Assembly: GCA_964476235.1 (NCBI GenBank)
Contig: CAYYZZ010000002.1
Span: 1-39,663, forward strand
Direction: 5' to 3'
DNA length: 39,663 nucleotides
DNA from: an uncultured Streptomycetaceae bacterium
GTDB taxonomy: Bacteria; Pseudomonadota; Gammaproteobacteria; Burkholderiales; SG8-41
Numbering within the stretch: the stretch's first letter is position 1; every line of letters starts with the position of its first letter. Positions 3,271 to 39,410 of this stretch are shown one piece after another. The notes beneath the pieces are model-generated. The model was not told the origin of the DNA. It was given only the letters and a program-made list of their open reading frames with translations, and did no database searches. A program made the translations under genes and the position numbers.

Positions 3271-3379
3271 CGTGATTCGTGAATCGTGATTCGACCTCTT
3301 ATTCCCTCTCCCCTGCGGTGGGGGAGAGGTCAGGGTGAGGGGGGACGCTCGATTCACGAATCACGATTCACGAATCACG
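3271..3379. repeat. Heptad-periodic inverted repeat (GTGAWTC subfamily), 3 + 4 units, REP-like hairpin in the loop
   Basis: Left arm CGTGATTCGTGAATCGTGATTCGA (3271-3294). The right arm (3349-3379) is its exact reverse complement plus one extra 7-nt unit. The loop carries CCCTCTCCCCTGCGGTGGGGGAGAGG...GGGTGAGGGG. Confidence 0.95.
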
Positions 3380-3696
3380 GGGTTCATCAGGAACGTTCGC
3401 AGCAAACCGGACTGGGTGACTTCTTCGTAAACGGCAGGGTCTTGCAGGGCCTGGGTCAGTATGAAGTGCGGCGCGCCGCGCTTGATGAACTGGGGCGCGA
3501 GGATGCCGGTGGCGATGACCGCGAGACCCGTGAAGATCCAGCCGATGAGCGCCAGCACCACGCCGATCCCCAGCACCGGCATCATCACGAACGGCAGCAG
3601 CAGGCGCGCCGAAAGATAGCGCGCTGCGGCTTTCGGGTCGATCTCGACCTTGATCCCGCCGCGCGCGTGGGCGGCGGTGAATTCGCTGTGAGTCAT
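3361..3696 (-). CDS. Small hypothetical membrane protein (two predicted TM helices)
   Basis: 111-aa ORF with hydrophobic stretches LLLPFVMMPVLGIGVVLALIGWIFTGLAVIATGILA. The last residues (VIRES*) and the stop codon are encoded by the heptad repeat arm at 3349-3379. Confidence 0.5.
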   Translation of the reverse strand: MTHSEFTAAHARGGIKVEIDPKAAARYLSARLLLPFVMMPVLGIGVVLALIGWIFTGLAVIATGILAPQFIKRGAPHFILTQALQDPAVYEEVTQSGLLRTFLMNPVIRES

Positions 3697-3708
3697 GTCT
3701 TGCAGTCG

Positions 3709-3887
3709 CAGATAAAGCGACTCAGGTGAAGCGTCTCAGATAAAGCGTCGCAGGTGATTCGTCCCAAGAAAAGCGTCTTTCCGAGACGCCTTATCTGAGA
3801 CGTCTTATCTGAGACGTCCTATCTGAGACGTCCTATCTGAGACGCCTTATCTGAGACGTCTTATCTGAGACGCTTCACCTGGGACGC
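3709..3887. repeat. 14-nt-periodic (2 x 7) inverted tandem array, 5 + 7 units, 4-nt tip
   Basis: The left arm has units CAGATAAAGCGACT, CAGGTGAAGCGTCT, CAGATAAAGCGTCG, CAGGTGATTCGTCC and CAAGAAAAGCGTCT (3709-3778). The tip is TTCC. The right arm has seven units of GAGACG(C/T)C(T/C)TATCT (3783-3880) plus a partial unit. Confidence 0.95.
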
Positions 3888-3889
3888 CT

Positions 3890-4510
3890 TCAGTATTCGA
3901 CCGGTATCGGATCCAACGAGCGCCACAGATACCAGGTGGCCACCGAGCGCCACGGCGCCCAGGCAGTGCCGATTTTCTGCATGCGCGTGAAGGTCAGAGG
4001 ACGGCCGCGGTTGTAGTGCAGCCGCATCGCCCGTTGCAGGCCGAGGTCGGCGAGCGGCAGCACGTCGGGGCGGGCGAGGTGGAACATCAGGAACATTTCC
4101 GCCGTCCAGCGGCCGATGCCTTTCACCTGCGTCAACTCCCCGATCAGGATCTCGTCATCGAGCGCGGGCCAGCGCGCGGCGTCGAGCGTGCCGCCACGGA
4201 ACTTGCCGGCGAGATCCTTCAGATAGCCGGCCTTCTGGCCGGACAGGCCGCAGTTGTGCAGGGTCGGTTTGCGGACGCGGGACAGGGTCTCCGGCGTCAC
4301 CGTTCCGAGCCGGCCGGCGAGCCGGTCCCAGACGCTTTGGGCCGCCTTCACCGAGATCTGCTGGCCGACGATGGAACGGGCAAGCGTCGAGAACGCATCG
4401 CCGCGGCTGCCGAGCGCGAGGCCCTGGAACCGCGCAATCAGTTCACTCAGCACCGCGTCGCGCTCGGCGAGCTCGCGGGTCGCCTGCGGCCAGTAGTCGG
4501 GTGTTTTCAT
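3890..4510 (-). CDS. DNA-3-methyladenine glycosylase II family (HhH-GPD, AlkA-like)
   Basis: 206 aa. Helix-hairpin-helix/GPD region LTQVKGIGRWTAEMFLMF...DVLPLADLGLQ includes the catalytic-type Asp. Confidence 0.85.
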   Translation of the reverse strand: MKTPDYWPQATRELAERDAVLSELIARFQGLALGSRGDAFSTLARSIVGQQISVKAAQSVWDRLAGRLGTVTPETLSRVRKPTLHNCGLSGQKAGYLKDLAGKFRGGTLDAARWPALDDEILIGELTQVKGIGRWTAEMFLMFHLARPDVLPLADLGLQRAMRLHYNRGRPLTFTRMQKIGTAWAPWRSVATWYLWRSLDPIPVEY

Positions 4511-4523
4511 CGTGTGTTTATTA

Positions 4524-4613
4524 GCCGCAAAGGCGCAAAGCCGCAGAGAACTTTCAACAAAATGTGTCTATTATTAATTAAGTTAAATCTCGGCGCCTCT
4601 GCGTCTCTGTGGC
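4524..4613. repeat. Heptad-periodic inverted repeat (GCCGCAA/AGGCGCA subfamily) with AT-rich loop
   Basis: Left arm GCCGCAAAGGCGCAAAGCCGCAGAGA (4524-4549). Right arm TCTCGGCGCCTCTGCGTCTCTGTGGC (4588-4613), imperfectly complementary. Same unit family as 14462-14622. Confidence 0.8.
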
Positions 4614-4616
4614 GTG

Positions 4617-5177: not shown

Positions 5178-5408
5178 GCGTGATCGGTCGCGTATCGTAC
5201 GCGGCCGATAAGATTTTACTCAATTTGGGTTCGTTTTCACGCTAATTCCTCAGGCGGTTTAGTTGTCAGCAGCCGGTCGGGGGTCAAATTAGCCCGCATG
5301 CCGCAGGCGTTTGCCCGCGCGGCTTGATCGCATGCCCCCAAGTCCGCGTACTCATGAAGCTTGCGGGCTGAGGTGTCCACCGGCGCGCGCTTCGCGCGTT
5401 ACGGGGCA

Positions 5409-7820
5409 ATGAGGCTCAACGTTCTCTGCTTCGTGGCGGGGGCCTGGTGGCTGCAGCAGCAGGCCGTGCTGCCCGATGCCGGCTGGGCGTGGGCGCTGGG
5501 AGCGGTTGGCCTTGCCGTAACCGCAGCGCGACCCGAGCGCGGGGCGCTGCGCCTGCTGCGCGGGCTGCTCGTGAAATCCGCGTGCTTCGCCCTGGGTTTT
5601 TCGTGGGCGGCGTGGTGCGCGCAACAGAGGCTGGCGGACGCCCTGCCGGCGGAATGGGAAGGGCGCAATATCGCCGTCGTCGGCGTCGTGGCCGGGTTGC
5701 CGCAGGCATACGATCGGGGCGTTCGCTTCGAGTTCGACATCGAGCGCGTGCTGACCCCGGGCGCGCGCGTGCCGCAGCATATTGTGCTGTCGTGGTGGGG
5801 CACCCCGGCGCGCGACGACCGGCCCGCCACCTTTCCGTCGCTCGAGCCGGGCGAGCGCTGGCTGTTGACGGTGCGGCTGAAGCGCCCGCACGGGACCGCC
5901 AACCCCCATGGCTTCGACTACGAGGCGTGGCTGTTCGAGCGCAACCTGCGCGCAGCCGGTTATGTGCGGCCGAAGACGGCCCGCGAGCGGCTGGCGACGA
6001 TGGTGCACGAGCCCAGGTACTGGGTCGAGCGCGCCCGCGGGGCAATCCGCTCGCGCATCCAGGCCGCGTTGCCGGATGCGCCGTACGCCGGCGTCATCGC
6101 CGCGCTCGCGATCGGCGACCAGCGCGCCATCCCTCCGGAACAGTGGCAGACCTTCACCCGCACCGGCGTCAACCACCTGATGAGCATCTCGGGGCTGCAC
6201 GTCACCATGGTCTCGGGCCTCGTGTTCGCGCTGGTCTACGGCCTGTGGCGCCGCATTCCCCGGCTCACGCTGGCATTGCCGGCGCTTAAGGCCGCCGCGG
6301 TCGGGGCGCTGGGTGCCGCGCTGCTCTACGCGCTGCTCGCGGGTTTCGCCGCGCCGGCACAGCGCACCGTTTACATGCTGGCCGTGGTCGCGGCCGCGCT
6401 TTGGCTGGGCGTCATCGAATCGGCTTCGGTCGTGCTGTGCGTGGCGCTCCTCGTCGTCGTGGTGATCGACCCCTGGGCGGTGCTGGCGCCGGGATTCTGG
6501 CTATCCTTCGGCGCGGTCGCCGTGATCATGTACGTCACGGCAGGCCGCATCGGCCGCGAGCATTGGCTTGCGAGCTGGGCCAGGGTGCAGATCGCGGTGA
6601 CGCTGGCGCTGATCCCGCCGCTGCTGGCGATGTTCCAGCAGGTATCGATCGTCTCGCCGCTCGCCAACGCCGTGGCGATCCCGGTGGTCAGCCTGATCGT
6701 CGCGCCGCTGGCGCTGATCGGGGTCGCGCTGCCGTTCGACCTCGTCCTGCAGTGCGCGCATCTCGTGATGAGCGGGTGCATGGCGCTGCTCGAGTGGTTG
6801 AGCACGCTGCCTGACGCCGTGTGGCAGCAGCACGCGCCCCCGGCGTGGGCCGTGATCGTTGCGGTCGCGGCGCTGGCCTGGCTGCTCGCCCCGCGCGGGC
6901 TGCCCGCGCGCTGGCTGGGCGTGATCGGGCTGCTGCCGTTATTCGCGGTGGCGCCGGGCGTGTTGAGGGCAGGAGACGTCGAGGTCGTCGTGCTGGACGT
7001 CGGACAAGGCTTATCCACGGTGGTTCGCACCGCGAAACATGCACTGCTCTACGATGCAGGCCCTGCGTTCGGGCCGGGTGCGGACAGCGGCAGCCGCATC
7101 ATCGTTCCCTACTTGCGGGCAGTCGGCGTCGATCGGCTCGACGGCATGATCGTCACGCATGACGATGACGATCACTCGGGCGGGGCGGCATCGGTGCTGC
7201 AGGCGGTACCGGTGGCCTGGCTGCTGACCTCGCTACCCGACCTCGACCCCCTGGTAGTGCAGGCCAATCCGGCTATGCGTTGCGAGGCGGGGCAGCAGTG
7301 GGAATGGGACGGCGTGCGTTTCGAGGTGCTGCACCCGACACGAGCGAGCTATGGCGACCCCGCGGTCAGGGATAACGACCGCGGTTGCGTGCTCAAGGTC
7401 GAGGCGCCAGGCGGCCGGGTCCTGCTCCCCGCCGACGTCGAGCGCCGTACCGAAGAGGAGTTGCTGCTCCGCTCGTTGGGCCGTCTGCCGGCCGATGTGC
7501 TGCTGGCGCCGCACCACGGCAGCCGCACTTCATCGATCCCCGCGTTCGTGCAAGCGGTCGGCCCACAGTTGGTGGTGTTCCCGGCGGGCTATCGCAACCG
7601 ACTGGGGCATCCCCACCGCGAAGTGGTGGAGCGCTATCGGAACGCTGGCACGCGGATTTACCGCACCGATCGCGACGGTGCCGTGACCATCGCGGTCCAC
7701 GCGGAAGGCACGATCAGTGTCACGCCGTACCGCGCCGTCTATCGCCGCTACTGGCAGACGCCGCTGTTCGGGGATCCTGTCCCGGATCCCCTGGAATTCG
7801 GAATGCAGAATGATGAATGA
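5409..7820 (+). CDS. comEC: DNA internalisation-related competence protein ComEC/Rec2
   Basis: Polytopic membrane core followed by a C-terminal metallo-beta-lactamase domain (VVVLDVGQGLSTVV ... THDDDDHSGG ... APHHGS). ATG at 5409 is preferred over the TTG at 5361. Confidence 0.9.
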   Translation: MRLNVLCFVAGAWWLQQQAVLPDAGWAWALGAVGLAVTAARPERGALRLLRGLLVKSACFALGFSWAAWCAQQRLADALPAEWEGRNIAVVGVVAGLPQAYDRGVRFEFDIERVLTPGARVPQHIVLSWWGTPARDDRPATFPSLEPGERWLLTVRLKRPHGTANPHGFDYEAWLFERNLRAAGYVRPKTARERLATMVHEPRYWVERARGAIRSRIQAALPDAPYAGVIAALAIGDQRAIPPEQWQTFTRTGVNHLMSISGLHVTMVSGLVFALVYGLWRRIPRLTLALPALKAAAVGALGAALLYALLAGFAAPAQRTVYMLAVVAAALWLGVIESASVVLCVALLVVVVIDPWAVLAPGFWLSFGAVAVIMYVTAGRIGREHWLASWARVQIAVTLALIPPLLAMFQQVSIVSPLANAVAIPVVSLIVAPLALIGVALPFDLVLQCAHLVMSGCMALLEWLSTLPDAVWQQHAPPAWAVIVAVAALAWLLAPRGLPARWLGVIGLLPLFAVAPGVLRAGDVEVVVLDVGQGLSTVVRTAKHALLYDAGPAFGPGADSGSRIIVPYLRAVGVDRLDGMIVTHDDDDHSGGAASVLQAVPVAWLLTSLPDLDPLVVQANPAMRCEAGQQWEWDGVRFEVLHPTRASYGDPAVRDNDRGCVLKVEAPGGRVLLPADVERRTEEELLLRSLGRLPADVLLAPHHGSRTSSIPAFVQAVGPQLVVFPAGYRNRLGHPHREVVERYRNAGTRIYRTDRDGAVTIAVHAEGTISVTPYRAVYRRYWQTPLFGDPVPDPLEFGMQNDE

Positions 7821-7898
7821 TGAGCGGACGGCACCGACGCCGGTTCCATTAACTCATTATTCCTCATTCACTTTCACTCAGTGAGAGTGAGTGAAAGT
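7801..7898. repeat. Heptad-periodic inverted repeat (GAATGAT subfamily) plus an adjacent 11-bp perfect hairpin, between convergent comEC and the hydratase gene
   Basis: Left arm GAATGCAGAATGATGAATGATGAG (7801-7824) contains the comEC TGA. Right arm CTCATTATTCCTCATTCACTTTCACTCA (7853-7880). The hairpin is ACTTTCACTCA (7870-7880) / TGAGTGAAAGT (7888-7898). Confidence 0.88.
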
Positions 7899-8695: not shown

Positions 8696-8707
8696 CGGGA
8701 AGCCGCC

Positions 8708-9777: not shown

Positions 9778-9816
9778 CGCTTGCTCCCGTTTTGTCTTAC
9801 AACCCCCTGATTTTAT

Positions 9817-9845
9817 TTGAAGCAGCGGCTCGATTCCGATAAAAT
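9817..9845 (+). promoter_or_regulatory. Sigma-70-type promoter for tRNA-Val
   Basis: TTGAAG (9817-9822), 17-nt spacer, TAAAAT (9840-9845), about 20 nt upstream of the mature tRNA 5' end. Confidence 0.6.
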
Positions 9846-14461: not shown

Positions 14462-14462
<1 letters not shown>

Positions 14463-14622
14463 CCGCAAAGACGCTAAGGCGCCAAGAAAACGGAATGAAT
14501 GAACATCAAGAAGCAAGGCAGTGGAGGGAACGTGCGATCGGCTGTTCTGCTTCTTTTGGTCGAACAGGTAATTCGTTATTGATTATTGATCGGATTCCTT
14601 GGCGTCTTGGCGTCTTGGCGGC
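14462..14622. repeat. Heptad-periodic inverted repeat (GCCGCAA/AGACGCC subfamily) between pheS and pheT
   Basis: Left arm GCCGCAAAGACGCTAAGGCGCCAAG (14462-14486). Right arm CCTTGGCGTCTTGGCGTCTTGGCGGC (14597-14622). The ~110-nt AT-richer loop has an inner stem (AAGAAGCAAGGCAG / CTGTTCTGCTTCTT). Confidence 0.9.
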
Positions 14623-17708: not shown

Positions 17709-17757
17709 AATGAAGGAACACTCCCCTCATGCTTCCCTACATCCGGGGCCGTTTCAG
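17709..17757. repeat. Dispersed ~50-nt repeat, copy 1 (AATGAAGGAACACTCCCCTCATGCTTCCCTACATCCGGGGCCGTTTCAG)
   Basis: Roughly 80-85% identical by eye to 30696-30745. Confidence 0.8.
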
Positions 17758-17936: not shown

Positions 17937-17941
17937 ATTTT

Positions 17942-18017
17942 CGTGATTCGTGAATCGTGAGTCGTGAATCGACTAGACCGGTTCTTGCCAGGGCCGAATC
18001 ACGAATCACCAATCACG
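17942..18017. repeat. Heptad-periodic inverted repeat (GTGAWTC subfamily)
   Basis: Left arm CGTGATTCGTGAATCGTGAGTCGTGAATCGA (17942-17972). Right arm CGAATCACGAATCACCAATCACG (17995-18017). The loop is 22 nt. Confidence 0.92.
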
Positions 18018-20684: not shown

Positions 20685-21293
20685 ATGCGGTTGTGGCACA
20701 ACCCGGCATCGCCATTCGCGCGCAAGGTGCGCGTCATTGCCCGTGAAGCGGGCCTGGACGGACGCATCGAGGAGATCAGCATCATGGTGAGCCCGGTCAA
20801 GCCGCATGCGGACCTGGCGCGGGAAAATCCCCTGGTCAAGATACCGGCGCTGTCCACGCCGGATGAGGGAACGCTCTACGACTCGGCGGTGATCTGCGAG
20901 TACCTCGACAGCCTGCACGGCGGGAAGCCCCTGTTTCCGAAAGCGGGAACGGAGCGGTGGCGGGAACTGCGGTTGCAGGCGCTCGGCGACGGCATACTCG
21001 AGGCAGCGGTCCTCATGCGCTACGAGAGCGCGGTGCGGCCGCAGGCGCTGCAATGGAGCGACTGGGTCGCCGGGCAACTGGGAAAGGTGAGAGGCGGCCT
21101 GGATGCTCTCGAGCGCGAGTGCGCCGGCTGGGGCGAACGCTTTGCCATCGGCGAGATCACCGCGGCCTGCGTGCTCGGATACCTGGATTTCCGCTTCCCC
21201 GGCGAATCGTGGCGCCCGGCGCATCCCATGCTCGAGAAGTGGTACGCCATGGTCTCGCAGCGGCCGTCGGTGAAGGCGACTGTCCCCCAGTGA
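20685..21293 (+). CDS. Glutathione S-transferase family protein
   Basis: 202 aa. Thioredoxin-like N-domain (MRLWHNPASPFARKVR...NPLVKIPAL...LYDSAVICEYL) plus a helical C-domain. The stop TGA is the first triplet of the TGATGAG array. Confidence 0.85.
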   Translation: MRLWHNPASPFARKVRVIAREAGLDGRIEEISIMVSPVKPHADLARENPLVKIPALSTPDEGTLYDSAVICEYLDSLHGGKPLFPKAGTERWRELRLQALGDGILEAAVLMRYESAVRPQALQWSDWVAGQLGKVRGGLDALERECAGWGERFAIGEITAACVLGYLDFRFPGESWRPAHPMLEKWYAMVSQRPSVKATVPQ

Positions 21294-21332
21294 TGAGTGA
21301 TGAGTGATGAGTGATGAGTGATGGGTGATGAG
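21291..21332. repeat. One-armed tandem heptamer array (TGATGAG x6) bridging the GST stop and Nit start
   Basis: Units lie at 21291, 21298, 21305, 21312, 21319 (TGATGGG) and 21326. Confidence 0.95.
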
Positions 21333-22189: not shown

Positions 22190-22226
22190 CGAATCACGAA
22201 TCACGATTCACGAATCACGAATCACG
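22190..22226. repeat. One-armed tandem heptamer array (CGAATCA/CGATTCA x5), the complement orientation of the GTGAWTC subfamily
   Basis: CGAATCACGAATCACGATTCACGAATCACGAATCACG sits between the Nit stop (22184) and the next ATG (22234). Confidence 0.95.
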
Positions 22227-23784: not shown

Positions 23785-23892
23785 TGCCGTTCCAACTTGT
23801 TGTGCTTATCGGCAAAGAGCTCTGCAGGCCTTAGATCAAGCTTCGTTAGGACCCCAGCACTTAGCGAGAGATAGTTGGAACGGCACTAGCGC
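23778..23892. repeat. 115-bp element bounded by perfect 20-bp terminal inverted repeats (MITE-like or long hairpin)
   Basis: GCGCTAGTGCCGTTCCAACT (23778-23797) and its exact reverse complement AGTTGGAACGGCACTAGCGC (23873-23892). The left repeat contains the cupin TAG stop. Confidence 0.9.
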
Positions 23893-23907: not shown

Positions 23908-24020
23908 TGACCAGTGACCTCTGACCAGTGAACGGCAAGACCGCCTCGAACCGCCGCCATTACCGGTTATTCATCCCCGCGACCGCCGGTCAACGGTCCC
24001 GGGTCACGGGTCACTGAACC
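23908..24020. repeat. Heptad-periodic inverted repeat (GACCNGT subfamily) directly upstream of surE
   Basis: Left arm TGACCAGTGACCTCTGACCAGTGAACGG (23908-23935). Right arm CCGGTCAACGGTCCCGGGTCACGGGTCACTGAACC (23986-24020). The loop holds the 19-mer also found at 1245-1263. Confidence 0.85.
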
Positions 24021-24773
24021 GTGCGCATCCTACTGAGCAACGACGACGGCTACTTCGCGCCGGGCATCACGCTGCTCGCCGAGATGCTCGCGCCCCTGGC
24101 GGAAATCACGGTGGTGGCGCCCGAGCGCGACCGCAGCGGGTCGAGCAACTCCCTCACCCTCGATCGCCCGCTTGCGGTGCGCCGCGCGCAGGGCCGGTTC
24201 TATTACGTCAACGGCACCCCCACGGACTGCGTGCACCTGGCGGTGACGGGGTTGCTGAAGGAGCTGCCCGACATCGTCATCTCCGGCGTCAACCATGGCG
24301 CCAACATGGGCGACGACACGATTTATTCGGGCACCGTCGCGGCGGCAACCGAAGGGTTCCTGCTGGGCATACCCTCGATCGCGATCTCGCTGGTGGCCGA
24401 AGGCGGAGGCCATTTCCGCACCGCCGGCCGCGTCGCGATGGAACTGGTCAGCCGCTTTCAGCGCAAGCCGCTTGGCCAGCCCGTGCTGCTCAACGTCAAC
24501 GTTCCCGATGTCGAATACGGCGAGCTGCGCGGCTTCCAGGTGACGCGGCTCGGCAAGCGGCACAAGGCGGAGCCGGTCGTGAAGTCCACCACGCCTCGCG
24601 GCGAGACGGTGTACTGGGTCGGCGCCGCCGGCGGCGCACAGGACGCGGGCGAGGGCACGGATTTTCATGCCATCGCCGCGAACCGCGTCTCGATCACGCC
24701 GCTGCAAATGGATCTGACGCGCTACGCCCAGCTCGAGTCGGTCAGCGCTTGGCTCACAAGCGATGATGCGTGA
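24021..24773 (+). CDS. surE: 5'/3'-nucleotidase SurE
   Basis: [16 protein letters not shown] ... [25 protein letters not shown] start. Confidence 0.95.
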
Positions 24774-24799
24774 TGCGTGATGGGTGACGAGTGACGGGC
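24765..24799. repeat. One-armed tandem heptamer array (GAYGNGT x5) bridging the surE stop and the pcm 5' region
   Basis: GATGCGT GATGCGT GATGGGT GACGAGT GACGGGC. The surE TGA (24771-24773) lies inside it. Confidence 0.9.
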
Positions 24800-25467: not shown

Positions 25468-25525
25468 GTTCAATCAAGGTTCAAAGTCCGGGCCCGGAAC
25501 CTGAAACCTTGAGCTCGCAATCGAA
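25468..25525. repeat. Imperfect palindrome with heptad-like units (TCAAGGT/TCAAAGT) centred on CCGGGCCCGG
   Basis: Left arm GTTCAATCAAGGTTCAAAGTCCGGG, right arm CCCGGAACCTGAAACCTTGAGCTCGCAATCGAA. It forms two stems with an internal loop and lies between pcm and nlpD. Confidence 0.6.
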
Positions 25526-26428: not shown

Positions 26429-26551
26429 AACGATGAACGATGAACGATGAACTATGAACGATGAACTATGAACGATGAATGATGAACTGACGGCAACGAC
26501 GCGATTTCGGCTGTTCGTTCATCGTTCCGCGATCATCGTTCATCGTTGTTC
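26429..26551. repeat. Heptad-periodic inverted repeat (AACGATG/GATGAAC subfamily), 9 + 5 units
   Basis: The left arm has nine units at 26429-26491 (AACGATG x5, AACTATG x2, AATGATG, AACTGAC). The right arm is GTTCGTTCATCGTTCCGCGATCATCGTTCATCGTTGTTC (26513-26551). Confidence 0.95.
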
Positions 26552-28519: not shown

Positions 28520-28623
28520 CGTGATTCGTGAATCGTGAATCGTGAGTCGTGGTTCGACCCAACCAGGGTGTCAGAGGATTGTTTGCAAGAGCTCGATTCA
28601 CGACTCACCCATCACGACTCACG
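28520..28623. repeat. Heptad-periodic inverted repeat (GTGAWTC subfamily) inside the MoxR operon
   Basis: Left arm CGTGATTCGTGAATCGTGAATCGTGAGTCGTGGTTCGA (28520-28557). Right arm TCGATTCACGACTCACCCATCACGACTCACG (28593-28623). The right arm encodes the DUF58 C-terminal RES* and its stop. Confidence 0.92.
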
Positions 28624-29585: not shown

Positions 29586-29686
29586 AGGATTGAGGATTGA
29601 GCAATTAGGATTGAGTGGGCACTCTATAGCTGCGTTTTTTCGAATAGCGGTTTTCCCTCATTCCTCAGTCCTCAATGCTCAATCCT
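29586..29686. repeat. Heptad-periodic inverted repeat (AGGATTG subfamily) inside the MoxR operon
   Basis: Left arm AGGATTGAGGATTGAGCAATTAGGATTGAGTGGG (29586-29619). Right arm CCCTCATTCCTCAGTCCTCAATGCTCAATCCT (29655-29686). Confidence 0.92.
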
Positions 29687-30695: not shown

Positions 30696-30745
30696 AATGA
30701 GGGGACACGTCCCCTCATGCTCCCCTGCATCAGGGGCCGTTTCGA
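30696..30745. repeat. Dispersed ~50-nt repeat, copy 2 (AATGAGGGGACACGTCCCCTCATGCTCCCCTGCATCAGGGGCCGTTTCGA)
   Basis: Matches 17709-17757. It contains the palindrome ATGAGGGGAC-AC-GTCCCCTCAT and is followed by the 9-bp hairpin GGCCGTTTC/GAAACGGCC. It probably doubles as the GNAT-gene terminator on the minus strand. Confidence 0.8.
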
Positions 30746-31424: not shown

Positions 31425-31523
31425 TGGATGAGGAATGATAAATTATGAGTGACTACGCTTGACTAGGCGTAGCACGTCGTTTCCCATTCCGCATTCATCA
31501 TTCATCATTCATCATTCAACATT
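31425..31523. repeat. Heptad-periodic inverted repeat (GAATGAT/CATTCAT subfamily) in the GNAT/HDAC divergent spacer
   Basis: Left arm TGGATGAGGAATGATAAATTATGAGTGAC (31425-31453). Right arm CATTCCGCATTCATCATTCATCATTCATCATTCAACATT (31485-31523). The loop contains the hairpin CTACGC/GCGTAG. Confidence 0.9.
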
Positions 31524-31532: not shown

Positions 31533-32456
31533 ATGACGATCGCCTACATCACTCATCCCGACTGCCTGTTGCACGACATGGGGGCGGGCCATCCCGAGTG
31601 CCCGGCAAGGTTGCGAGCGATCGAGGACCAGTTGATCGCCTCGGGACTGATCAATTATTTGCAGCACGTCGAGGCGCCACTGGCCGGGCGCGAGCAGCTA
31701 GAACGGGTGCACGATCCGGCTTACATTGCCGCGCTGGAAGCGGCGGCGCCGGAAAAAGGGCTCACCCATCTCGACCCTGACACCGCGATGAATCCGCACA
31801 CGCTCGCCGCCGCTCTGCGCGCGGCGGGGGCGGCGGTATTGGCGACCGACAGGGTGATCAAGGGCGGGGTTGACGCCGCGTTTTGCAACGTGCGTCCTCC
31901 CGGGCATCACGCCGAGCGTTCCCGTGCCATGGGCTTCTGCCTGTTCAACAACGTTGCCATCGCGGCGGCGCACGCGCTCGAAGCGCATGGCCTGAAGCGG
32001 GTCGCTATCGTGGATTTCGACGTGCATCACGGCAATGGCACCGAGGATATCTTTCACGACGACGGACGCGTGATGATGGTTTCCACTTTCCAGCACCCGT
32101 TTTATCCGTACAGCGGGGTAGAGGGACGATCCGGCCGCATGGTGAACATCCCGCTCGCTGCTCGCAGCGGTGGACGGGAGTTCCGCGCGGCGGTCGAGCA
32201 GTACTGGCTACCGGCGCTGGAGGCGTTCAGGCCGGAGATGCTGTTCATCTCGGCCGGGTTCGACGCGCATTGCGACGACGATATGGCGATGCTCAACCTG
32301 GTGGAAGCCGATTACGCGTGGGTGACGGAAAAGATCAAGGCGGTCGCGGAGCGTCATGCTGGCGGCCGCATGGTCGCGGTACTCGAGGGCGGTTATGACC
32401 TGCATGCGCTGGGCCGCAGCGTTGCAGCACACATCAAGGTCATGGGCGGGCTGTAA
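31533..32456 (+). CDS. Histone deacetylase-family (class II HDAC/HDAH/AcuC-like) Zn-dependent deacetylase
   Basis: 307 aa with RPPGHHA, DFDVHHGNGTE and LEGGY motifs intact. Confidence 0.92.
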   Translation: MTIAYITHPDCLLHDMGAGHPECPARLRAIEDQLIASGLINYLQHVEAPLAGREQLERVHDPAYIAALEAAAPEKGLTHLDPDTAMNPHTLAAALRAAGAAVLATDRVIKGGVDAAFCNVRPPGHHAERSRAMGFCLFNNVAIAAAHALEAHGLKRVAIVDFDVHHGNGTEDIFHDDGRVMMVSTFQHPFYPYSGVEGRSGRMVNIPLAARSGGREFRAAVEQYWLPALEAFRPEMLFISAGFDAHCDDDMAMLNLVEADYAWVTEKIKAVAERHAGGRMVAVLEGGYDLHALGRSVAAHIKVMGGL

Positions 32457-32580: not shown

Positions 32581-35500
32581 GTGGCCAGACCATCGCCAAG
32601 GGTAAACGAGAAAACAGTGCGCAAGGTGGAGCGCCAGAAGCCCAAGAGAGCTTGGACGCTGGCGCAAGGCCGGGATATTGCCGAGCGCAGTCGTATCTGG
32701 CAGGCGCTGCTCGAGAGCGAAGACCGCTACCGGGCGACGTTCGATTGCGCGCCCGTCGGCATCATGCACACCAGCGTGGACTCCGACAGGATCCTGCACG
32801 CCAACCCCAAGCTGTCCGAGATGCTGGGCTACACCGAGAACGAGCTGCTCGGGATGACGACCGATGACATCCTCCATCCTGACCACGCAGGCGCGGACCG
32901 TCCCAGATACCGGGAGAAGATGCTGTCGGGGGAACTGGACTCGTTTTCGTCGCAGCGCAAGTATATCCGCAAAGACAGCTCCGTCATATGGGTCAACCGC
33001 ATGGTGTATCTGGCGCGGGACCCGCTCGGCAAGCCCCTTTACTTCATTCGTATCGTCGAGGATATCACCGGGCGTAAGCAGGCCGAAGCCAACCTGAAGC
33101 GGCTTGCACGCGCGCGACACGTCATGGCCGAGTGCAGCCGCGTGCTGGTCCACGCCAGCGATGAAACCGCAATGCTGCAGGAGATGTGCCGCGTCGCGGT
33201 AGGGTCCGGCGGCTACAAGATGGCATGGGTGGGACTTGCCACCGGCGATCCCGCGCGCCCGGTGTATCCGGCGGCGCACGCCGGGTTCGAGGGCGATGCG
33301 CCCATGACCGCATCCGCCGCCTGGAGCGCGGACGGGCGCTATCAGGGTTTCATGCACGAGGTGATCGCGACCGGCAATCCGCACATCGCGCGCGACATAC
33401 TCAGGGATCCAGCGCTCGCGCATCGTCGCGCCCGCGCGGTGCAGCATGGCTTCCAGTCCTCGATCGCGCTGCCGCTGGAAGGCAGGGGTGCGATCCTCGG
33501 CGCTATTGCCATCTACGCGCGCGAGGCCGACGCGTTCGACGAGGAGGAAATCGCCCTCCTGACCGAGCTGGCCAGCGACATCGCTTACGGCATCGTCAAT
33601 CTGCGCACTCGCATCGCGCGGGAGCAGGCGGAAGAGCGGTCCAGGGAGACCGAAAGGCGCTTCCGCGAGACCTTCGAGCAGGCGGCAGTTGGCCTCACCC
33701 GCGTCGATCTCAATGGCGTGCTGGTGGACTTCAACCAGAAGTTCTGCGACATGCTGGGCTATTCGCGGGAAGAGCTGCTCGGCAAGGCCATCAAGGACAT
33801 CACTCACCCGGACGACTACGGGCAGGGCTCGCAGTTCCGCGCGCACCTCGTGAACGGCGTCGCGAAGTCGCAGGCCGGCGAGAAGCGCTTCATGCGCAAG
33901 GACGGCACCGTGTTGTGGGCGCAGCGCACCATGTCCATGGCCTGCGACGCGGCGGGCAGGCCGCAATACGTGATCAGCGTGGTCGAGGACATCACCGAGC
34001 GCAAGGAAGCCGAGGCCGAACGCGCGCGGCTCGCGATGATCGTCGAGAATGCCGGTGACGCGATCATCGGGCGCGCGCTGGACGGAACCATCACGTCGTG
34101 GAACGCGGCCGCGGAGCGGATGTTCGGCTATTCCGAGAGCGAAATGATCGGCCAGTCGATCGCCATCCTCGTGCCGGAACAACACCGCCATCTGACGGAC
34201 AACAACGAGCGGCTGCGGCGCGGTGAAATGATACCGGTGAGCGAGAGGATACGCGTCACCAAGGACGGTCGCATCATCCATGTGCAGTCCGGCATTTCGC
34301 CGATCAAGAACGAGGCTGGAGAAGTCATCGGTGCCGCCGTCATCGTTCGCGACATCACCGAGCGCAAGCGTGCCGAGGAGTCGGTCGTCCGCGAGCGGGC
34401 GCTGCTGCGCACGATCATCGACACCGTCCCCGATTACATCTACGTCAAGGACGCGGAGGGACGGTTCAGCCTCGCCAACAAGGCGTGGTTGAAGGAGCGC
34501 AACCTGAGCGACGAGACCATTGCCGGAAAGACCGTGTTCGATGTCTTCCCGGCCGAGCTGGCCGAAAGGATGGCCGACCAGGACGTGGGCGTTATGAGGA
34601 CGGGGGTCCCCATATTGGATTTCGAGCAGAGAGTGATCGTCAAGAGGCCGGAAGGGGGGCGTTCTCAGCCGCGGTGGTTTTCCATTACCAAAGTGCCGAT
34701 GGTCGACGCGTCGGACAAGATCATCGGCACGGTTGGCACCAGCCGCGACATCACGGAACGCAAGCTGTCGGCGCAACGCCGCGAGATGGAGCACGCGATT
34801 GCGAGTGCCCTGGCTGAAGCGACGACGGTCGGAGAGGCGCTTCCCAAGGTCATCCAGACGATCTGCGAGGGGCTGGATTGGGACTGCGGGTTCCACTGGA
34901 GCTGGAACAAACCCTCAGAGCTGCTGCGGTGCCGGGAACACTGGTATCGGCACGCGGACGCGATGGACGATTTCGTGCAAGCCTCGCTGGGCATGGTTAA
35001 CGAGGCGCCCGCCGTAGTCTCCACTACGCCAAGTGGAGGTCTGGTGAGGCGGGTATGGGCCAGTGCGACGCCCGTATGGCTGCCCGATGTCGCGAGCATG
35101 CCGGATTTTCGGCGCGCGCCGGCTGCGATGCGCGCTGATTTGCACGGGACGTTCGCTTTCCCGATCATGATGGAAGGGCGTCCCTGGGGGGTCATGGAAT
35201 TCTTCAGCCACGAGATCCGGGAACCGGGTGAGGCGCTCCTGCAGATCGTGCGGGCGATCGGCAGCCAGATAGGACAGTTCATCCGGCGCAAGGAAACCGA
35301 GCAGGCGCTGCGCGAGAGCGAGGAACAGTTCCGCCAGCTCGCCGGCAACATTCCGCAGGTCTTCTGGATCACCGACACCGCCCAGCGGCAGACGCTGTAC
35401 GTCAGTTCCGCGGCGGAAGCCATGCTGGGGCGGCCGCTGCAGGACATCCTCTCCGACCGCCGGGCGTTGATCCGGGCGGTGCACAAGGAGGACCGGGCGC

Positions 35501-37428
35501 GCGTATACGCCGCGCGCAAAGCCGCGGTGGAAGGCGGTTACGATGAGACTTACCGCATTCTGCGCTCGGATGGCTCCATACGCTGGGTGCACGAGCGCGC
35601 GTTTCCGGTGCGTGATGGCGAAGGCAGAATCTATCGCATTGCCGGCATTGCCGAGGACGTGACTGACCGCAAACATGCCGAGGAGAGGCTGGAACACCTG
35701 GCGCACTACGACGTGCTGACCAATCTGCCGAACCGTGCCCTGTTCTACGACCGGCTGAAGCAGGCGCTCGTCCAGGCCAAGCGCAACCGGTGGACGGCGG
35801 GTGTCATGTTCATCGACGCGGACCGCTTCAAAAACGTGAACGATACGCTGGGACACGCAGTCGGTGACAAGCTGTTGCAGCAGATAGCGGGGCGCCTGAC
35901 GCGGTCGGTACGTTCAGGCGATACCGTGGGGCGCCTCGGTGGCGATGAATTCGCGATCGTCCTGTCGACGCTTGCCAGCGCGCAGGACGCGAATCTGGTC
36001 GCGCAGAAGATCATGACGGCCTTCGACGAACCGTTCAAGCTGGAAGGCACCGAGGTTTACGTGACGGCCAGCATCGGCATCACGTTGTATCCCGACGATA
36101 GCAGCGATCAGGATATTCTGATCAAGAACGCGGATGCCGCGATGTACCGGGCCAAGGAAATCGGCCGCAACGGCTACCAGTTCTATATGCCCGAGATGAA
36201 CGCGCGCGCGGTCGAGTTGCTGGGCATGGAGAGCAGCCTGCGGCGCGCCCTCGAACGCAACGAATTCCTGGTGTACTACCAGCCCAAGGCCAGCGTCGCG
36301 GATGGGGACATCACGGGCCTGGAGGCGTTGCTGCGCTGGAAGCACCCTGAGCGCGGGCTGGTTTTGCCGGTGGAATTCATCCCGCTGCTGGAGGAATCAG
36401 GCTTGATCGTTCAGGTCGGCGAATGGGTGCTCAAGGCGGTCTGCGCCCAGATCAAGGCATGGGAGCGCGCCGGCGACAGGCCCGTGCCGGTGGCGGTCAA
36501 TCTTTCCGCCCGGCAGTTCGCGGCGAAAGACCTGGGCCCGACCATCAAGCGCATCCTCGAGGAGCACCAGATGGATCCCGCGCTGATCGAGCTCGAGATC
36601 ACGGAAAGCGCCCTGATGGCAAATACCGAGGAGGCAGTGCGCACCCTGGAGTACCTGGACCAGCTTGGCGTCGGTCTTTCCATTGACGATTTCGGCACGG
36701 GTTACTCGAGCCTGGGTTATCTCAAGCGCTTCCCGCTCTCCGCGCTCAAGATCGACAGCTCGTTCGTGCGTGATGTCACCTCGGATGGCGACGACGCGAC
36801 TATCACGCGGGCGGTTATCTCGATGGCGCATAGCCTGGGGCTTAAAGTGATTGCGGAAGGGGTGGAAACCCGGGCGCAGCTCGAATTTCTCGCCGAGTAT
36901 GGTTGCAACGAGATCCAGGGCTATTACTTCGCGCACCCGCTGGCGGCCGAGGATTGCAGCACCTGGGTCAGGGAGCAGCGCCGCCTCGAGCGGCCGAGAC
37001 CGGCCTCCGACGTCAGCATGCCGGTCGTGCTGCTCCTGGACGATGACGACGACACGCTTGCGCACGTCAAGCGCATTCTTGCCAGGGACGGTTACCGGAT
37101 CCTCGCGGCGCACAATGCGCGCGAAGGGCTAGCACTGCTACGCGATCAACACGTGGATGTCGTGGTCTCCGATCAGGACATGCCGGGAATGTCGGGCGTG
37201 GATTTCCTGCAATGCGTGCAAACGCTGTCGCCGAAAACGATGCGCATCCTGGCCACCAGCTACGCCGACTTCCAGACCATGGCCGACGCGGTCAATAAGG
37301 GCGGGATTTTCCGCTGCCTGCCCAAGGATATTGACGACGATGCGTTGCGCGCCAGTGTGCGCGAGGCGATGCAGGCCAAGATCCGCGCGCTGGAGAACTC
37401 GATACCGCCGGGCACGTTGGGGAAGTAG
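32581..37428 (+). CDS. Cytoplasmic multi-sensor c-di-GMP protein: PAS-GAF-PAS-PAS-PAS-GAF-PAS-GGDEF-EAL-REC
   Basis: 1615 aa with GTG start and GGAGG 7 nt upstream. Five DIT(E/D/G)RK-terminated PAS units and two GAF-like regions are present. Intact motifs are GGDEF (RLGGDEFAIV), EAL (GLEALLRW, DDFGTGYSS, EGVET, QGYYF) and a C-terminal receiver (LLLDDDDD, VVVSDQDMPGM, CLPKD). No TM helix. Confidence 0.9.
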   Translation: MARPSPRVNEKTVRKVERQKPKRAWTLAQGRDIAERSRIWQALLESEDRYRATFDCAPVGIMHTSVDSDRILHANPKLSEMLGYTENELLGMTTDDILHPDHAGADRPRYREKMLSGELDSFSSQRKYIRKDSSVIWVNRMVYLARDPLGKPLYFIRIVEDITGRKQAEANLKRLARARHVMAECSRVLVHASDETAMLQEMCRVAVGSGGYKMAWVGLATGDPARPVYPAAHAGFEGDAPMTASAAWSADGRYQGFMHEVIATGNPHIARDILRDPALAHRRARAVQHGFQSSIALPLEGRGAILGAIAIYAREADAFDEEEIALLTELASDIAYGIVNLRTRIAREQAEERSRETERRFRETFEQAAVGLTRVDLNGVLVDFNQKFCDMLGYSREELLGKAIKDITHPDDYGQGSQFRAHLVNGVAKSQAGEKRFMRKDGTVLWAQRTMSMACDAAGRPQYVISVVEDITERKEAEAERARLAMIVENAGDAIIGRALDGTITSWNAAAERMFGYSESEMIGQSIAILVPEQHRHLTDNNERLRRGEMIPVSERIRVTKDGRIIHVQSGISPIKNEAGEVIGAAVIVRDITERKRAEESVVRERALLRTIIDTVPDYIYVKDAEGRFSLANKAWLKERNLSDETIAGKTVFDVFPAELAERMADQDVGVMRTGVPILDFEQRVIVKRPEGGRSQPRWFSITKVPMVDASDKIIGTVGTSRDITERKLSAQRREMEHAIASALAEATTVGEALPKVIQTICEGLDWDCGFHWSWNKPSELLRCREHWYRHADAMDDFVQASLGMVNEAPAVVSTTPSGGLVRRVWASATPVWLPDVASMPDFRRAPAAMRADLHGTFAFPIMMEGRPWGVMEFFSHEIREPGEALLQIVRAIGSQIGQFIRRKETEQALRESEEQFRQLAGNIPQVFWITDTAQRQTLYVSSAAEAMLGRPLQDILSDRRALIRAVHKEDRARVYAARKAAVEGGYDETYRILRSDGSIRWVHERAFPVRDGEGRIYRIAGIAEDVTDRKHAEERLEHLAHYDVLTNLPNRALFYDRLKQALVQAKRNRWTAGVMFIDADRFKNVNDTLGHAVGDKLLQQIAGRLTRSVRSGDTVGRLGGDEFAIVLSTLASAQDANLVAQKIMTAFDEPFKLEGTEVYVTASIGITLYPDDSSDQDILIKNADAAMYRAKEIGRNGYQFYMPEMNARAVELLGMESSLRRALERNEFLVYYQPKASVADGDITGLEALLRWKHPERGLVLPVEFIPLLEESGLIVQVGEWVLKAVCAQIKAWERAGDRPVPVAVNLSARQFAAKDLGPTIKRILEEHQMDPALIELEITESALMANTEEAVRTLEYLDQLGVGLSIDDFGTGYSSLGYLKRFPLSALKIDSSFVRDVTSDGDDATITRAVISMAHSLGLKVIAEGVETRAQLEFLAEYGCNEIQGYYFAHPLAAEDCSTWVREQRRLERPRPASDVSMPVVLLLDDDDDTLAHVKRILARDGYRILAAHNAREGLALLRDQHVDVVVSDQDMPGMSGVDFLQCVQTLSPKTMRILATSYADFQTMADAVNKGGIFRCLPKDIDDDALRASVREAMQAKIRALENSIPPGTLGK

Positions 37429-37445
37429 ACGCTTTCAATAACACC

Positions 37446-37486
37446 CCCTCGCCCCGCGGCAGCGGGGAGAGGGTTGGGGTGAGGGG
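37446..37486. repeat. REP-like GC-rich hairpin motif CCCTCGCCCCGCGGCAGCGGGGAGAGGGTTGGGGTGAGGGG
   Basis: Same motif family as 3304-3345 (CCCTCTCCCCTGCGGTGGGGGAGAGGTCAGGGTGAGGGGGG). It lies between two convergent genes. Confidence 0.85.
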
Positions 37487-37522
37487 TAAAAGCCGATTGG
37501 GTGAAGGCTTGCCCGCCGCGAG

Positions 37523-37894
37523 TCACTTCTCGACCAGAATCGCGGCAACGACCTTGCGGCTTTCCGAAGCCAGGATGTTGTAGGTCCGGCAGGCCGCGCG
37601 GCTGTCCATCACCTCCACGCCCACGCCCGCGGCGGCCAGTGCCCGCGCCAGTTCGGGCTGCGGGAAACGTTGCGTGGCCCCCGTCCCGAATATCACGATT
37701 TCGGGCTTCAACTCCGCGATGAACCCGAAATCGGCCCCCGTGAGCTGATCGAAGCCGGCCACCGTCCATTCGGTGACCGCCTGCGGCGTCACCACCACGC
37801 ATTTTTCGTAGCGGATGTTGTTGACCGCGACGTAGCCCGTCCCGTATCCGGAGAACAGCTGCAGCCCTGCGATGGGCGTTAGGTGCAACTTCAT
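37523..37894 (-). CDS. Mth938-like domain (DUF498/NDUFAF3-like) protein
   Basis: 123 aa. The pattern I.GY..G...VN...Y.....V.P........W ... PE....GTG....P. ... G.G.E.M....A.RTYN.L..E.R.V.A is characteristic. Confidence 0.8.
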   Translation of the reverse strand: MKLHLTPIAGLQLFSGYGTGYVAVNNIRYEKCVVVTPQAVTEWTVAGFDQLTGADFGFIAELKPEIVIFGTGATQRFPQPELARALAAAGVGVEVMDSRAACRTYNILASESRKVVAAILVEK

Positions 37895-37915
37895 GTCGTT
37901 CCGATAACCTGCTGA

Positions 37916-37944
37916 TTTGCTTAAGGTTAGTCGCTCCGATAGAA
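37916..37944 (+). promoter_or_regulatory. Sigma-70-type promoter for the aminotransferase-hom operon
   Basis: TTGCTT (37916-37921), 17-nt spacer, TAGAAT (37939-37944). This predicts a ~135-nt leader. Confidence 0.5.
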
Positions 37945-38086
37945 TATCACGCTTTTGCGCATATCAAGCGCCCAGTGGAGCCTTGGCCTCGACACGGATG
38001 AACGGTGTCCAGGTTACCGTCGAAGCTCCGGGGCGCTTGATAAAAGTGACTAACCGATACGACGGGCTTCGATAAGTCCCAAGGCA

Positions 38087-39271
38087 ATGGAAGAGTTTTC
38101 TCGAATCAAGCGTCTGCCGCCGTACATTTTTAACGTCACCGGCGAGTTGAAACTCGCCGCGCGCCGGCGCGGCGAGGACGTCATCGACTTCAGCATGGGC
38201 AATCCCGACCAGCCTACGCCGCGTCACATCGTGGATAAGCTGGTCGAGACCGTTCAACGCCCCGACACCCACGGCTACTCGGTATCGAAGGGCATCATCC
38301 GGCTGCGGCGCGCGATCTGCAACTGGTACAAGGCGCGCTACAACGTCGAGTTCGACCCCGACTCCGAGGCGATCGTGACCATCGGCTCGAAAGAGGGCAT
38401 CGCGCACCTCGCGCTCGCCACGCTCGATACCGGCGACACGGTCCTGGTGCCGAATCCCAGCTACCCGATCCACATCTACGGGCCGGTGATCTCCGGCGCG
38501 GACATCCGGCACGTGCCGATGTCGCCGGACGTGGACTTCTTCGAGGCGGTCGAGCGCGCCTTCAAGGACTCGTATCCCAAGCCGAAGATGCTGATCGTCA
38601 ATTTTCCCAGCAATCCGACCACCCAGTGCGTGGACTTCGCGTTTTTCGAGCGGCTGGTCGCGCTGGCACGGGAGCATCACGTCTATATCGTGCACGACCT
38701 TGCTTACGCGGACATCGTGTTCGACGGCTACAAGGCGCCTTCGATCATGCAGGTCCCTGGCGCGCGCGAGATCGCGGTCGAGTTCTTCACCATGTCGAAG
38801 AGCTACAACATGGCGGGCTGGCGCGTGGGCTACATGGTCGGCAACCGCGAGCTGGTCACGGCGCTCGCCCGCATGAAGAGCTATCACGATTACGGCACGT
38901 TCACGCCGATCCAGGTGGCGTCCATCATCGCGCTGGAGGGTCCGCAGGATTGCGTCGAGACCGTGCGCCGGGTATACCAGGGGCGCCGCGACGTGATGTG
39001 CAGCGGCCTGAAGGCGATGGGCTGGAACGTCGAGGTGCCGAAAGCGACGATGTACGTGTGGGCGCCGATTCCGGAACCCTACCGCACAATGGGATCGCTC
39101 GAGTTTTCCAAGAAACTTCTGGCAGATGCGAAGCTGGCAGTAGCACCCGGAATCGGTTTCGGACATTATGGCGACGGTCACGTGCGCTTTGCGTTGATAG
39201 AGAACGAAGCCCGCACCCGTCAGGCGCTGCGCGGCATCAAAGACATGTTCAAGAAGGACGGCCTTCTTTAA
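38087..39271 (+). CDS. alaC: Class I/II pyridoxal-phosphate aminotransferase (AlaC/AlaT-like alanine transaminase)
   Basis: 394 aa with [33 protein letters not shown] and PLP-lysine context [15 protein letters not shown]. Its position upstream of hom is conserved. Confidence 0.88.
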
Positions 39272-39410
39272 TGATGAACGCGGAACGATGAATGCGGAAT
39301 GGAAGATGCCTGTAAATGGCGGTCAACGTGAATAACAATTTTCAAATCAGAGTGCCGAGACGCGAAGCCAGGGCGTTTCGTTCATCATTCATCATTCATA
39401 GTTCATCGTT
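39271..39410. repeat. Heptad/14-nt-periodic inverted repeat (GATGAAY-GCGGAAY / TTCATCA subfamily) between the aminotransferase and hom
   Basis: Left arm ATGATGAACGCGGAACGATGAATGCGGAATGGAAGATG (39271-39308). Right arm CGTTTCGTTCATCATTCATCATTCATAGTTCATCGTT (39374-39410) abuts the hom ATG. Confidence 0.9.

Follow-up and report, generated by a model that had tools for sequence, protein, structure and literature searches.

The window analysed here is a 39,663-nt stretch of chromosome (contig CAYYZZ010000002.1 of assembly GCA_964476235.1) from an uncultured Burkholderiales/Betaproteobacteria lineage, and our subject is a set of heptad hairpins in its intergenic spacers, in which tandem copies of a 7-nt unit are followed, after a loop, by tandem copies of the reverse complement. 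Genes were called from third-codon-position GC content and Pfam, and by its gene content the window is an ordinary chromosome region. It carries lolE/lolD-like ABC transporter genes, comEC, thrS-infC-rpmI-rplT-pheS-pheT-ihfA, tRNA-Pro, a TctC-family gene, surE-pcm-nlpD, tgpA-DUF58-moxR, the gene of a large PAS/GGDEF/EAL protein, an aminotransferase gene and hom. The nearest genomes are metagenome-assembled uncultured Betaproteobacteria/Burkholderiales, with a TgpA identity of at most 86%, and gene order is strongly kept between them and the window. An earlier note, made from the letters of this DNA, had placed the repeats in a high-GC proteobacterium; with a GC content of ~65%, the host is one.

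Tandem arrays were searched with Tandem Repeats Finder (TRF) and paired arms with an inverted-repeat finder. Spacers make up 9.5% of the window, and enrichment was measured against 100 dinucleotide-preserving shuffles of the 32 spacers of at least 15 nt (4.35 kb). The shuffles gave 0.21 period-7 arrays on average and never more than 2, whereas the real spacers have 17: the heptad pattern is real and statistically overwhelming. TRF found arrays of period 7, 14 or 28 at nearly all the coordinates where the earlier note had reported them, and the inverted-repeat finder recovered the paired arms, such as 3269-3293 and 3357-3381, which are 25 nt long and 100% complementary. The intergenic bias also holds, as all period-7-family arrays but two (543-558 and 32342-32379) lie in or at spacers, and the intragenic arrays of the window mostly have periods of 6, 9 or 12. 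The claim that the elements occupy most intergenic spacers went too far, since 16 of the 32, about half, hold an array. The features are as follows, with z referring to folding:

3269..3381: two-armed GTGANTC heptad hairpin between the convergent lolD-like and hypothetical genes, z -8.2.
3705..3890: two-armed element with a 14-nt unit of CAGATAAGACGTCT type, ~3 copies in the left arm and 7.7 in the right.
4523..4613: hairpin with period-8 arms, the left of GCCGCAAA type and the right of CTCTGCGN type, z -6.25.
7801..7898: GAATGAT heptad hairpin overlapping the comEC stop codon, between convergent genes, z -6.45.
14463..14622: nested long hairpin with period-8 outer arms GCCGCAAAG / CTTGGCGT, in the pheS/pheT spacer.
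17941..18017: GTGANTC heptad hairpin directly 3' of tRNA-Pro, convergent with an HbpS-like gene, z -4.1.
21289..21332, plus strand: one-armed array, 6.3 copies of TGATGAG, across the GST stop and CN-hydrolase start codons.
22190..22226: unstructured one-armed array, 5.3 copies of CGAATCA (GTGANTC in its C-rich orientation).
23908..24014: weak two-armed TGACCAG / GGTCACG element upstream of surE, z -2.4.
24764..24798, plus strand: one-armed GTGATGN array, spanning the surE stop and pcm start codons.
25468..25525: degenerate remnant of the GTTCAAG family in the pcm/nlpD spacer, z -1.1, non-significant.
26429..26551: GATGAAC heptad hairpin with arms of 8.4 and 4.7 copies, running from the nlpD stop codon, between convergent genes, z -4.7.
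28520..28623: GTGANTC heptad hairpin separating two minus-strand genes, DUF58 and tgpA, z -3.7.
29586..29686: AGGATTG heptad hairpin in the moxR/DUF58 spacer, z -3.9.
31425..31523: GAATGAT / CATTCAT element in the divergent GNAT/HDAC spacer, z -3.4.
39271..39410: two-armed GATGAAC / GTTCATC element between the aminotransferase gene and hom, z -4.35.

Apart from those at 23908 and 25468, the two-armed loci fold into long hairpins, with z from -3.4 to -8.2. The earlier description of the two-armed loci needs some amendments: the element at 4524-4613 and the outer arms of 14462-14622 have period 8, the element at 23908-24020 is weak, and the one at 25468-25525 is non-significant when taken alone. 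Clear GTTCMRG arrays are present in the orthologous pcm/nlpD spacers of L001, L006, L011, L020 and L021, where L-numbered loci (from L001 onward) are fetched relative, same-species or metagenome contigs that were compared with the window. The recurrence of one subfamily at four window sites, with four different loops, was confirmed. Its unit, first written GTGAWTC, is better given as GTGANTC, since G and C also occur at the variable position, and position 5 is the only free one (0.39 bits, against 1.1-1.55 elsewhere). The array at 22190..22226 is 97% identical to 3348-3379 (family D4), and a second short hairpin (7870-7898) follows the GAATGAT hairpin at 7801.

Several elements reach into the ends of genes. 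The stop codons of nlpD, GST, surE, comEC, DUF58 and hyp111 lie in or at arrays, that of DUF58 inside the right arm of 28520..28623. In the small minus-strand hypothetical gene hyp111 (3361-3696), the final codons and the stop codon are supplied by the right heptad arm of 3269..3381, and the C-terminus of this gene therefore differs between strains. The (TGATGAG)n array at 21289-21332 and the (GTGATGN)n array at 24764-24798 each span the stop codon of one gene and the start codon of the gene that follows. As each unit of these bridging arrays includes TGA along with an ATG or GTG start codon, the gain or loss of a unit would break neither gene; at the same positions in relatives, the stop and start codons overlap or lie 0-26 nt apart.

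Placement follows gene ends. In the window and 30 related loci, arrays occur in 12 of 38 convergent, 40 of 134 tandem and 1 of 35 divergent spacers (Fisher p = 2e-4), and 52 of the 172 spacers with a gene 3' end hold one. Arrays require a nearby gene end and avoid promoter-only spacers.

Polarity is a further trait of the elements: in 32 of 49, the 5' arm bears TGA and the 3' arm TCA, and the reverse is seen in 6, all of the GTTCMRG family. The 5' arms contain 35% G and 17% C, with G exceeding C in 37 of the 49, and the 3' arm is C-rich, a polarity that reverse complementation leaves unaffected. TGA/TCA is the most enriched trinucleotide in the units (80 observed against 31 expected) and, as 7 is not a multiple of 3, an arm that bears TGA puts a stop into every reading frame within 21 nt. 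Scanning metagenomes for (CGTGAWT)3CG gave at least 120 contigs. Among the matches listed, these contigs have a GC content of 0.43-0.69 (5th-95th percentile) and carry ~145 further heptad unit types; period 7 again dominates, with 365 arrays in the contigs listed, compared with 52, 62 and 113 for periods 6, 8 and 9. The partner of a (CGTGAWT)n array lies downstream in 39 cases and upstream in 2, again among the matches listed. Two accounts of these patterns were considered and set aside. That arrays are seeded by an upstream stop codon seems doubtful, even though several window arrays start at a TGA stop, as one-armed arrays split 14 to 10 by orientation and few metagenomic arrays among the matches listed (25 of 108) adjoin a sense-strand stop, and the idea that the polarity serves to put UGA in the 5' arm is weakened by the general excess of G over C (GTG 24 to 1, AGG 19 to 1).

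The same architecture extends to the relatives. Period-7 arrays reach 4.6-6.8 per 10 kb in several of the nearest and ~0-1 in distant ones. Of the 197 period-7 arrays in the fetched loci, 39% are accompanied by a reverse-complement array no more than 250 nt away, against 5-7% in reversed or complemented control sequences and 4% for arrays whose period is a multiple of 3; inverted pairing is specific to period 7. The DUF58/moxR spacer can be followed across 28 species, in 16 of which it contains a hairpin with z < -3, and its self-identity is 0.45-0.74 at lag 7 against ~0.25 at other lags. Its unit is AGGATTG in the window, L003, L024 and L026, and elsewhere it is GTTCCGA/GTTCAAG (L001), ATGGGTA (L007), GTGAGGA (L012), CAGTGAC (L015), GGCGAAA (L027) or a unit of period 8 (L004, L016). 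In every one of these species the two arms are reverse complements of each other. The arms thus co-vary across orthologous loci, the property on which the earlier note had staked its claim, with a unit distance between arms of 1.25 within species and 2.80 between species (n=12). At tgpA/DUF58, CGTGAWT arms are kept in the window, L003, L009 and L016 around unrelated loops. The order of variant units is mirrored between arms as well, with a score of 1070 against 1019 +/- 14 in shuffles, none of 200 shuffles being as high. At least 80 different units occur in the lineage, sharing no core beyond an enrichment in TGA, GAA and G. As the co-variation shows, the arms are kept complementary while the unit drifts, presumably by fold-back (quasi-palindrome) templating, by selection for pairing, or by both.

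Longer periods occur alongside. Hairpins with arms of period 9 or 10, of CCACAGAGNN / CTCTGTGNN and CACAGATNNN type, were seen in spacers of L001, L002, L004 and L009 and at ~110-330 of L081. They can nest inside heptad arms, and the whole spacer then forms one multi-layer palindrome.

Same-species contigs were obtained by exact-protein look-ups with L20, HDAC and PBP; the same look-ups with DUF58, surE and aminotransferase gave no matches. Four contigs (L081, L082, L085 and L086, from Joint Genome Institute (JGI) sample 3300019790) are ~97-98% identical to the window, and further contigs with 99.5-100% identity were also recovered. Where the window has 4-4.6 copies in the (CATTCAT) arm at 31492-31523, L085 and L086 have 7; this is a clean 21-nt (3-unit) indel within otherwise identical surrounding sequence. 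At 3705-3890, L081 carries another variant of the 14-nt unit and its right arm has ~2 copies instead of 7.7. Slippage, which the earlier note had suggested, and unit-count polymorphism are thus seen directly between ~98%-identical strains, and we conclude that whole units are gained and lost by replication slippage.

Other changes affect larger parts. The element at 4523..4613 retains its arms in L081 around a replaced loop. Between near-identical flanking genes, the lolD/hyp111 and tRNA-Pro/HbpS elements have been replaced wholesale by other nested hairpins, the former in L081 and the latter in L082, where the replacement consists of a canonical terminator and other arrays. Four other elements are unchanged in same-species contigs; the element at 14463..14622 is identical in L081 and L082, and that at 29586..29686 is identical in L085. 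Elements at different places can also resemble each other. Those at 7801 and 26429 have a 33-nt stretch in common (88% identity), 15 nt of which belong to the loop (family D20), and the L001 nlpD/tgpA and L021 pcm/nlpD elements share their arms and a loop of ~39 nt with few differences, although their spacers are non-orthologous. These are the two cases in which loop sequence is shared, and a search for the shared loop motif in the fetched loci returned the same-species ortholog only. The view that the elements are not copies of one transposing sequence therefore needs qualifying: loops mostly bear no relation to one another, which speaks against a single sequence that simply transposes, and in these two cases the whole element, loop included, has been copied. 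Whole elements are now and then copied to another spacer or replaced.

We propose that the heptad hairpins are slippage-built repeat palindromes kept at gene ends, where their most likely role is that of a 3' barrier at the end of a cistron or transcript, a reading to which we give an even chance of being right. A unit of 7 nt (sometimes 8, 9, 10 or 14) is repeated in tandem and faced by a reverse-complement array 5-110 nt away; the arrays lengthen and shorten via replication slippage, whole elements are occasionally copied or swapped, and retention is confined to places where a gene ends. Transcripts of either strand would fold into long, imperfect hairpins that lack a U-tract and have a G-rich 5' arm, usually with UGA in all three frames. 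Ribosomes might be released in that arm at the end of the cistron or transcript, and the stem might block 3' exonucleases or aid termination. Such a role would parallel that of REP (repetitive extragenic palindromic) elements and of operon-internal stabilising stem-loops. The latter, like the hairpins at Rho-dependent ends, have long stems directly after the cistron and no U-tract (PMC4423207, PMC8219983, PMC13613805), and stem-loops mark transcript 3' ends whether these are Rho-dependent or not (PMC13613805). Unlike ours, these stems are not tandem repeats, and their role has been established by experiment, whereas here it is inferred.

The heptad hairpins are not intrinsic (Rho-independent) terminators. 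They carry no U-tract and were not picked up as such, and terminator-like sites in the window occur at the level of shuffles (18 versus 14.4 and 12 versus 12.1).

Several observations weigh against a 3' barrier. In 36 elements between co-directional genes, sense versus antisense folding splits 17 to 19 (p = 0.81), and G-U pairs, at 97 sense and 114 antisense, have no bias either; the sense/antisense test neither supports nor excludes an RNA-only role. No RNA-specific signature emerges; fold-back templating could preserve the pairing in the DNA itself, or each of the two strands could be important. One-armed arrays are unstructured on folding and cannot make hairpins. The elements are dispensable, both in relatives whose spacer at the same place is only 10-18 nt long (L008, L010, L011) and within one species, where whole elements are swapped. 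A detectable sense-strand stop adjoins only 25 of 108 metagenomic arrays among the matches listed. The G-rich/C-rich asymmetry is general and extends to the heptamer unit of Xanthomonas, which contains no stop codon, so that stop codons are not the whole cause of the polarity. Finally, the 7-nt period itself is left without explanation.

The copying of whole elements raises the alternative of selfish, non-autonomous mobile DNA, similar to REP/BIME (bacterial interspersed mosaic element) or MITE (miniature inverted-repeat transposable element) sequences and moved by a transposase encoded elsewhere. The enzyme could be, for example, a RAYT (REP-associated tyrosine transposase) or an IS200/IS605-type Y1 enzyme acting on single-stranded DNA hairpins, the arms being recognition hairpins and any host function incidental. 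Mobility would account for the presence of one unit family at several spacers of a genome (GTGANTC at four window sites, GTTCMRG in four adjacent L001 spacers), for whole elements that recur with their loop at non-orthologous sites, for wholesale replacement between strains, and for the spread of (CGTGAWT)n over at least 120 metagenome contigs (GC 0.43-0.69 among the matches listed). Fixed polarity would be expected from the descent of one structured element, and tolerated selfish repeats, too, are typically found at 3' ends. We nevertheless regard this origin as unlikely, if well worth weighing. Most copies have unrelated loops, arm copy numbers are unequal within an element, and at orthologous positions the unit changes little by little across long evolutionary distances; one-armed arrays and whole-unit indels are what a repeat array, not transposition, would produce. 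By inspection, and with the array edges fuzzy, we saw no conserved terminus and no clear target-site duplication; comparison of the filled DUF58/moxR site with the empty sites of L008 and L010 leaves room for an ATC duplication of at most 3 nt, which could have arisen by chance. A domain search found no transposase or RAYT domain in any window protein.

Extragenic palindromes of the REP/BIME type abound at the 3' ends of genes and between cistrons, and many of them are nested or paired; they stabilise mRNA 3' ends, and their loops are insertion targets. They differ from the heptad hairpins in being copies of one 20-40 nt species-specific sequence with a 5' GTAG-type head, whereas the present elements are tandem arrays of variable units and copy number, with no conserved head and no RAYT in the window. 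Since units and loops differ by locus and no head is shared, we do not assign them to REP/BIME. CRISPR was rejected too: the units, of 7-14 nt, stand head to tail without spacers, and Rfam at gathering thresholds reports two tRNAs only in the window. The earlier note was thus right to exclude both CRISPR and classic REP, as there is no single conserved palindrome.

Other repeats are found in or beside the elements. A REP-like module, CCCTCTCCCC-loop-GGGGAGAGG followed by GGGTGAGGGG, lies within heptad or octad hairpin loops of at least five different genomes: in the window at 3297-3345, in the loop of 3269..3381, and in L012 (tgpA/DUF58 spacer), L091, L101 and L106. It is either part of a composite element or a preferential inserter into hairpin loops. 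A MITE-like element with a perfect 20-nt terminal inverted repeat, GCGCTAGTGCCGTTCCAACT, occurs at 23778-23892 of the window and in the pcm/nlpD spacer of L021, and a related MITE-like element of ~115 nt with inverted ends GCCGTTACAACC lies within repeat arrays at ~200-320 of L081 and ~6830-6945 of L082.

The heptad hairpins could also be a neutral mutational by-product, in which slippage builds the arrays, quasi-palindrome template switching provides the second arm, and the result is harmless at gene 3' ends. Their hypervariability between strains, their absence from some relatives and the lack of sense-strand bias all agree with such an origin, and the mirrored order of variant units fits templated copying. 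It is harder to reconcile with the strong dominance of period 7 over 5, 6, 8, 9 and 10 in spacers, with persistence at the same spacer and arms conserved where loops are saturated with change, with the strict, strand-symmetric polarity, and with the recurrence of specific heptads in very different genomes. We judge a purely neutral origin to be quite unlikely.

Intergenic heptamer arrays are known from other bacteria. The earlier note had named as nearest the STRR (short tandemly repeated repetitive) sequences of cyanobacteria (Calothrix, Nostoc, Anabaena), which are likewise intergenic heptanucleotide tandem arrays and, in heterocystous species, form several unit families per genome. STRR units include CCCCAGT, TTGGTCA and CAACAGT, which are not among the commonest units listed in our lineage. 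In contrast to the present elements, the arrays of Nostoc are mostly unpaired ("only a few paired repeats"), and units and phylum are different. With a Burkholderiales host and other units, membership in STRR was rejected.

The closest system is instead the GGGAATC family of Xanthomonas (PMC4692102). There, ~90% of the heptamer arrays are intergenic, they lie on average 28 nt from the upstream open reading frame (ORF), they are rare between divergent ORFs, and their length or copy number varies between related genomes or species (PMC4692102). Each genome has 70-75 convergent inverted pairs of such arrays (Rehm et al. 2015, PMC4692102), so the earlier belief that paired inverted heptamer arms were undescribed in a high-GC proteobacterium does not hold. 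The heptad hairpins resemble this family in being intergenic 7-nt arrays of a high-GC proteobacterium, in their inverted pairs, in their position at the 3' ends of upstream ORFs, in their rarity between divergent genes and in their copy-number variation. The Xanthomonas unit is one base away from GTGANTC, and position 5 is free in both, the Xanthomonas logo being GGGANTN with positions 1-4 and 6 conserved (PMC4692102). We read the Xanthomonas polarity as the same, with the G-rich arm first, on the strength of the word "convergent" in that paper (PMC4692102). The present elements have all the features of the Xanthomonas family bar the G3 tract. In contrast, Xanthomonas has one unit with that tract, and here there are dozens without G-tracts; here, too, arms co-vary at orthologous spacers, TGA usually lies in the 5' arm, strains replace whole elements, and the host order is Burkholderiales.

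The Xanthomonas arrays have been read as regulatory repeats that form G-quadruplexes. The 5' arms of the heptad hairpins are G-rich, and their nearest known family has been studied as a G-quadruplex former. The window units (GTGANTC, GATGAAC, AGGATTG, TGATGAG, GAATGAT), however, have no runs of three G and hence cannot form one; their sequences refute a G-quadruplex reading of the window elements, and as an explanation of the heptad hairpins it is practically out of the question.

Another set of heptamers, the TAACTGA repeats of marine Beggiatoaceae, cyanobacteria and Bacteroidetes, comprises 169 direct sets and one indirect set (MacGregor 2015, PMC4679880). They share with the heptad hairpins their intergenic position, stop codons within the unit and a patchy distribution across phyla, and differ in being near-exclusively direct, in having a single unit, and in lying just upstream of start codons, not at gene 3' ends (PMC4679880).

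The recurrence of a 7-nt period in unrelated lineages (cyanobacterial STRR, Xanthomonas, Beggiatoaceae and this host) suggests that the period may reflect periodic binding of a protein, with the hairpin secondary or competing. The protein could be a DNA enzyme with GANTC as its target or a single-strand binder with a ~7-nt footprint, of the cold-shock-domain or S1 type, as was proposed for the TAACTGA arrays of Beggiatoaceae, for which cold-shock, S1 and CsrA proteins have been named as candidates (PMC4679880). One-armed arrays exist, and the freedom of position 5 alone in GTGANTC matches the GGGANTN logo of Xanthomonas. The lineage, however, has at least 80 units without a shared core beyond TGA, GAA and G enrichment, GANTC is absent from most of them, no candidate protein has been identified, and co-variation points to pairing between arms rather than to a fixed motif. 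Protein binding as the source of the period is therefore a long shot.

We give equally little credence to a broader reading, according to which the heptad hairpins are one widespread directional class (G-rich 5', C-rich 3', with a GNGANTC-type core) written, copied or maintained by an unrecognised dedicated process. This class would be common to Xanthomonadales, Burkholderiales and other environmental bacteria, which strikes us as just as doubtful. The process, perhaps a protein or enzyme that steps 7 nt or reads GANTC-like units, would be neither generic slippage nor a classical transposon, and we rate its existence no higher. If true, it would explain the recurrence of 7 nt across phyla and the near-absolute polarity.

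Among the papers searched, none names the CGTGAAT unit or describes heptad hairpins of many units. An excess of heptanucleotides in the spacers of bacteria was pointed out as early as 2007 and, to our knowledge, still lacks an explanation; the sole detailed study that we know of tied it to G-quadruplexes. The heptad hairpins are not a new category; they are a variant of known, unexplained intergenic heptamer repeats. What is added here is the diversity of units with co-variation of arms, the near-absolute polarity with the G-rich arm first, the positional freedom within the unit and the hypervariability at strain level, which together argue against a G-quadruplex explanation. Attention thereby shifts to the shared traits, namely the 7-nt period, the co-varying inverted arms, the G-rich 5' arm and the placement at gene 3' ends.

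In practical terms, the elements supply stop codons and C-termini to neighbouring genes, can be used as strain-level markers, and break short-read assemblies. The last point is suggested by the many short metagenome contigs that begin or end in heptad arrays (the start of L089 and the ends of several contigs in L09x-L16x).

The window holds a further repeat family distinct from the heptad elements, a dispersed 34-nt repeat that adjoins short GC hairpins. Its copies at 17722-17755 and 30710-30743, in the merR/tRNA-Pro and moxR/GNAT spacers, are 91% identical. ARAGORN called a tRNA-Ala(cgc) of 90 nt at 39545-39634 on the minus strand, within the ORF for homoserine dehydrogenase (start at 39402); the call has no Rfam support and is probably a false positive. 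The large sensor protein encoded at 32581-37428 (1615 aa, with PAS, GAF, GGDEF, EAL and receiver domains) has PAS repeats that also produce internal direct repeats, and past ~34008 its nucleotide identity drops from ~97% to ~79% in L085 and L086, which suggests that the sensor region is recombining or rearranging.

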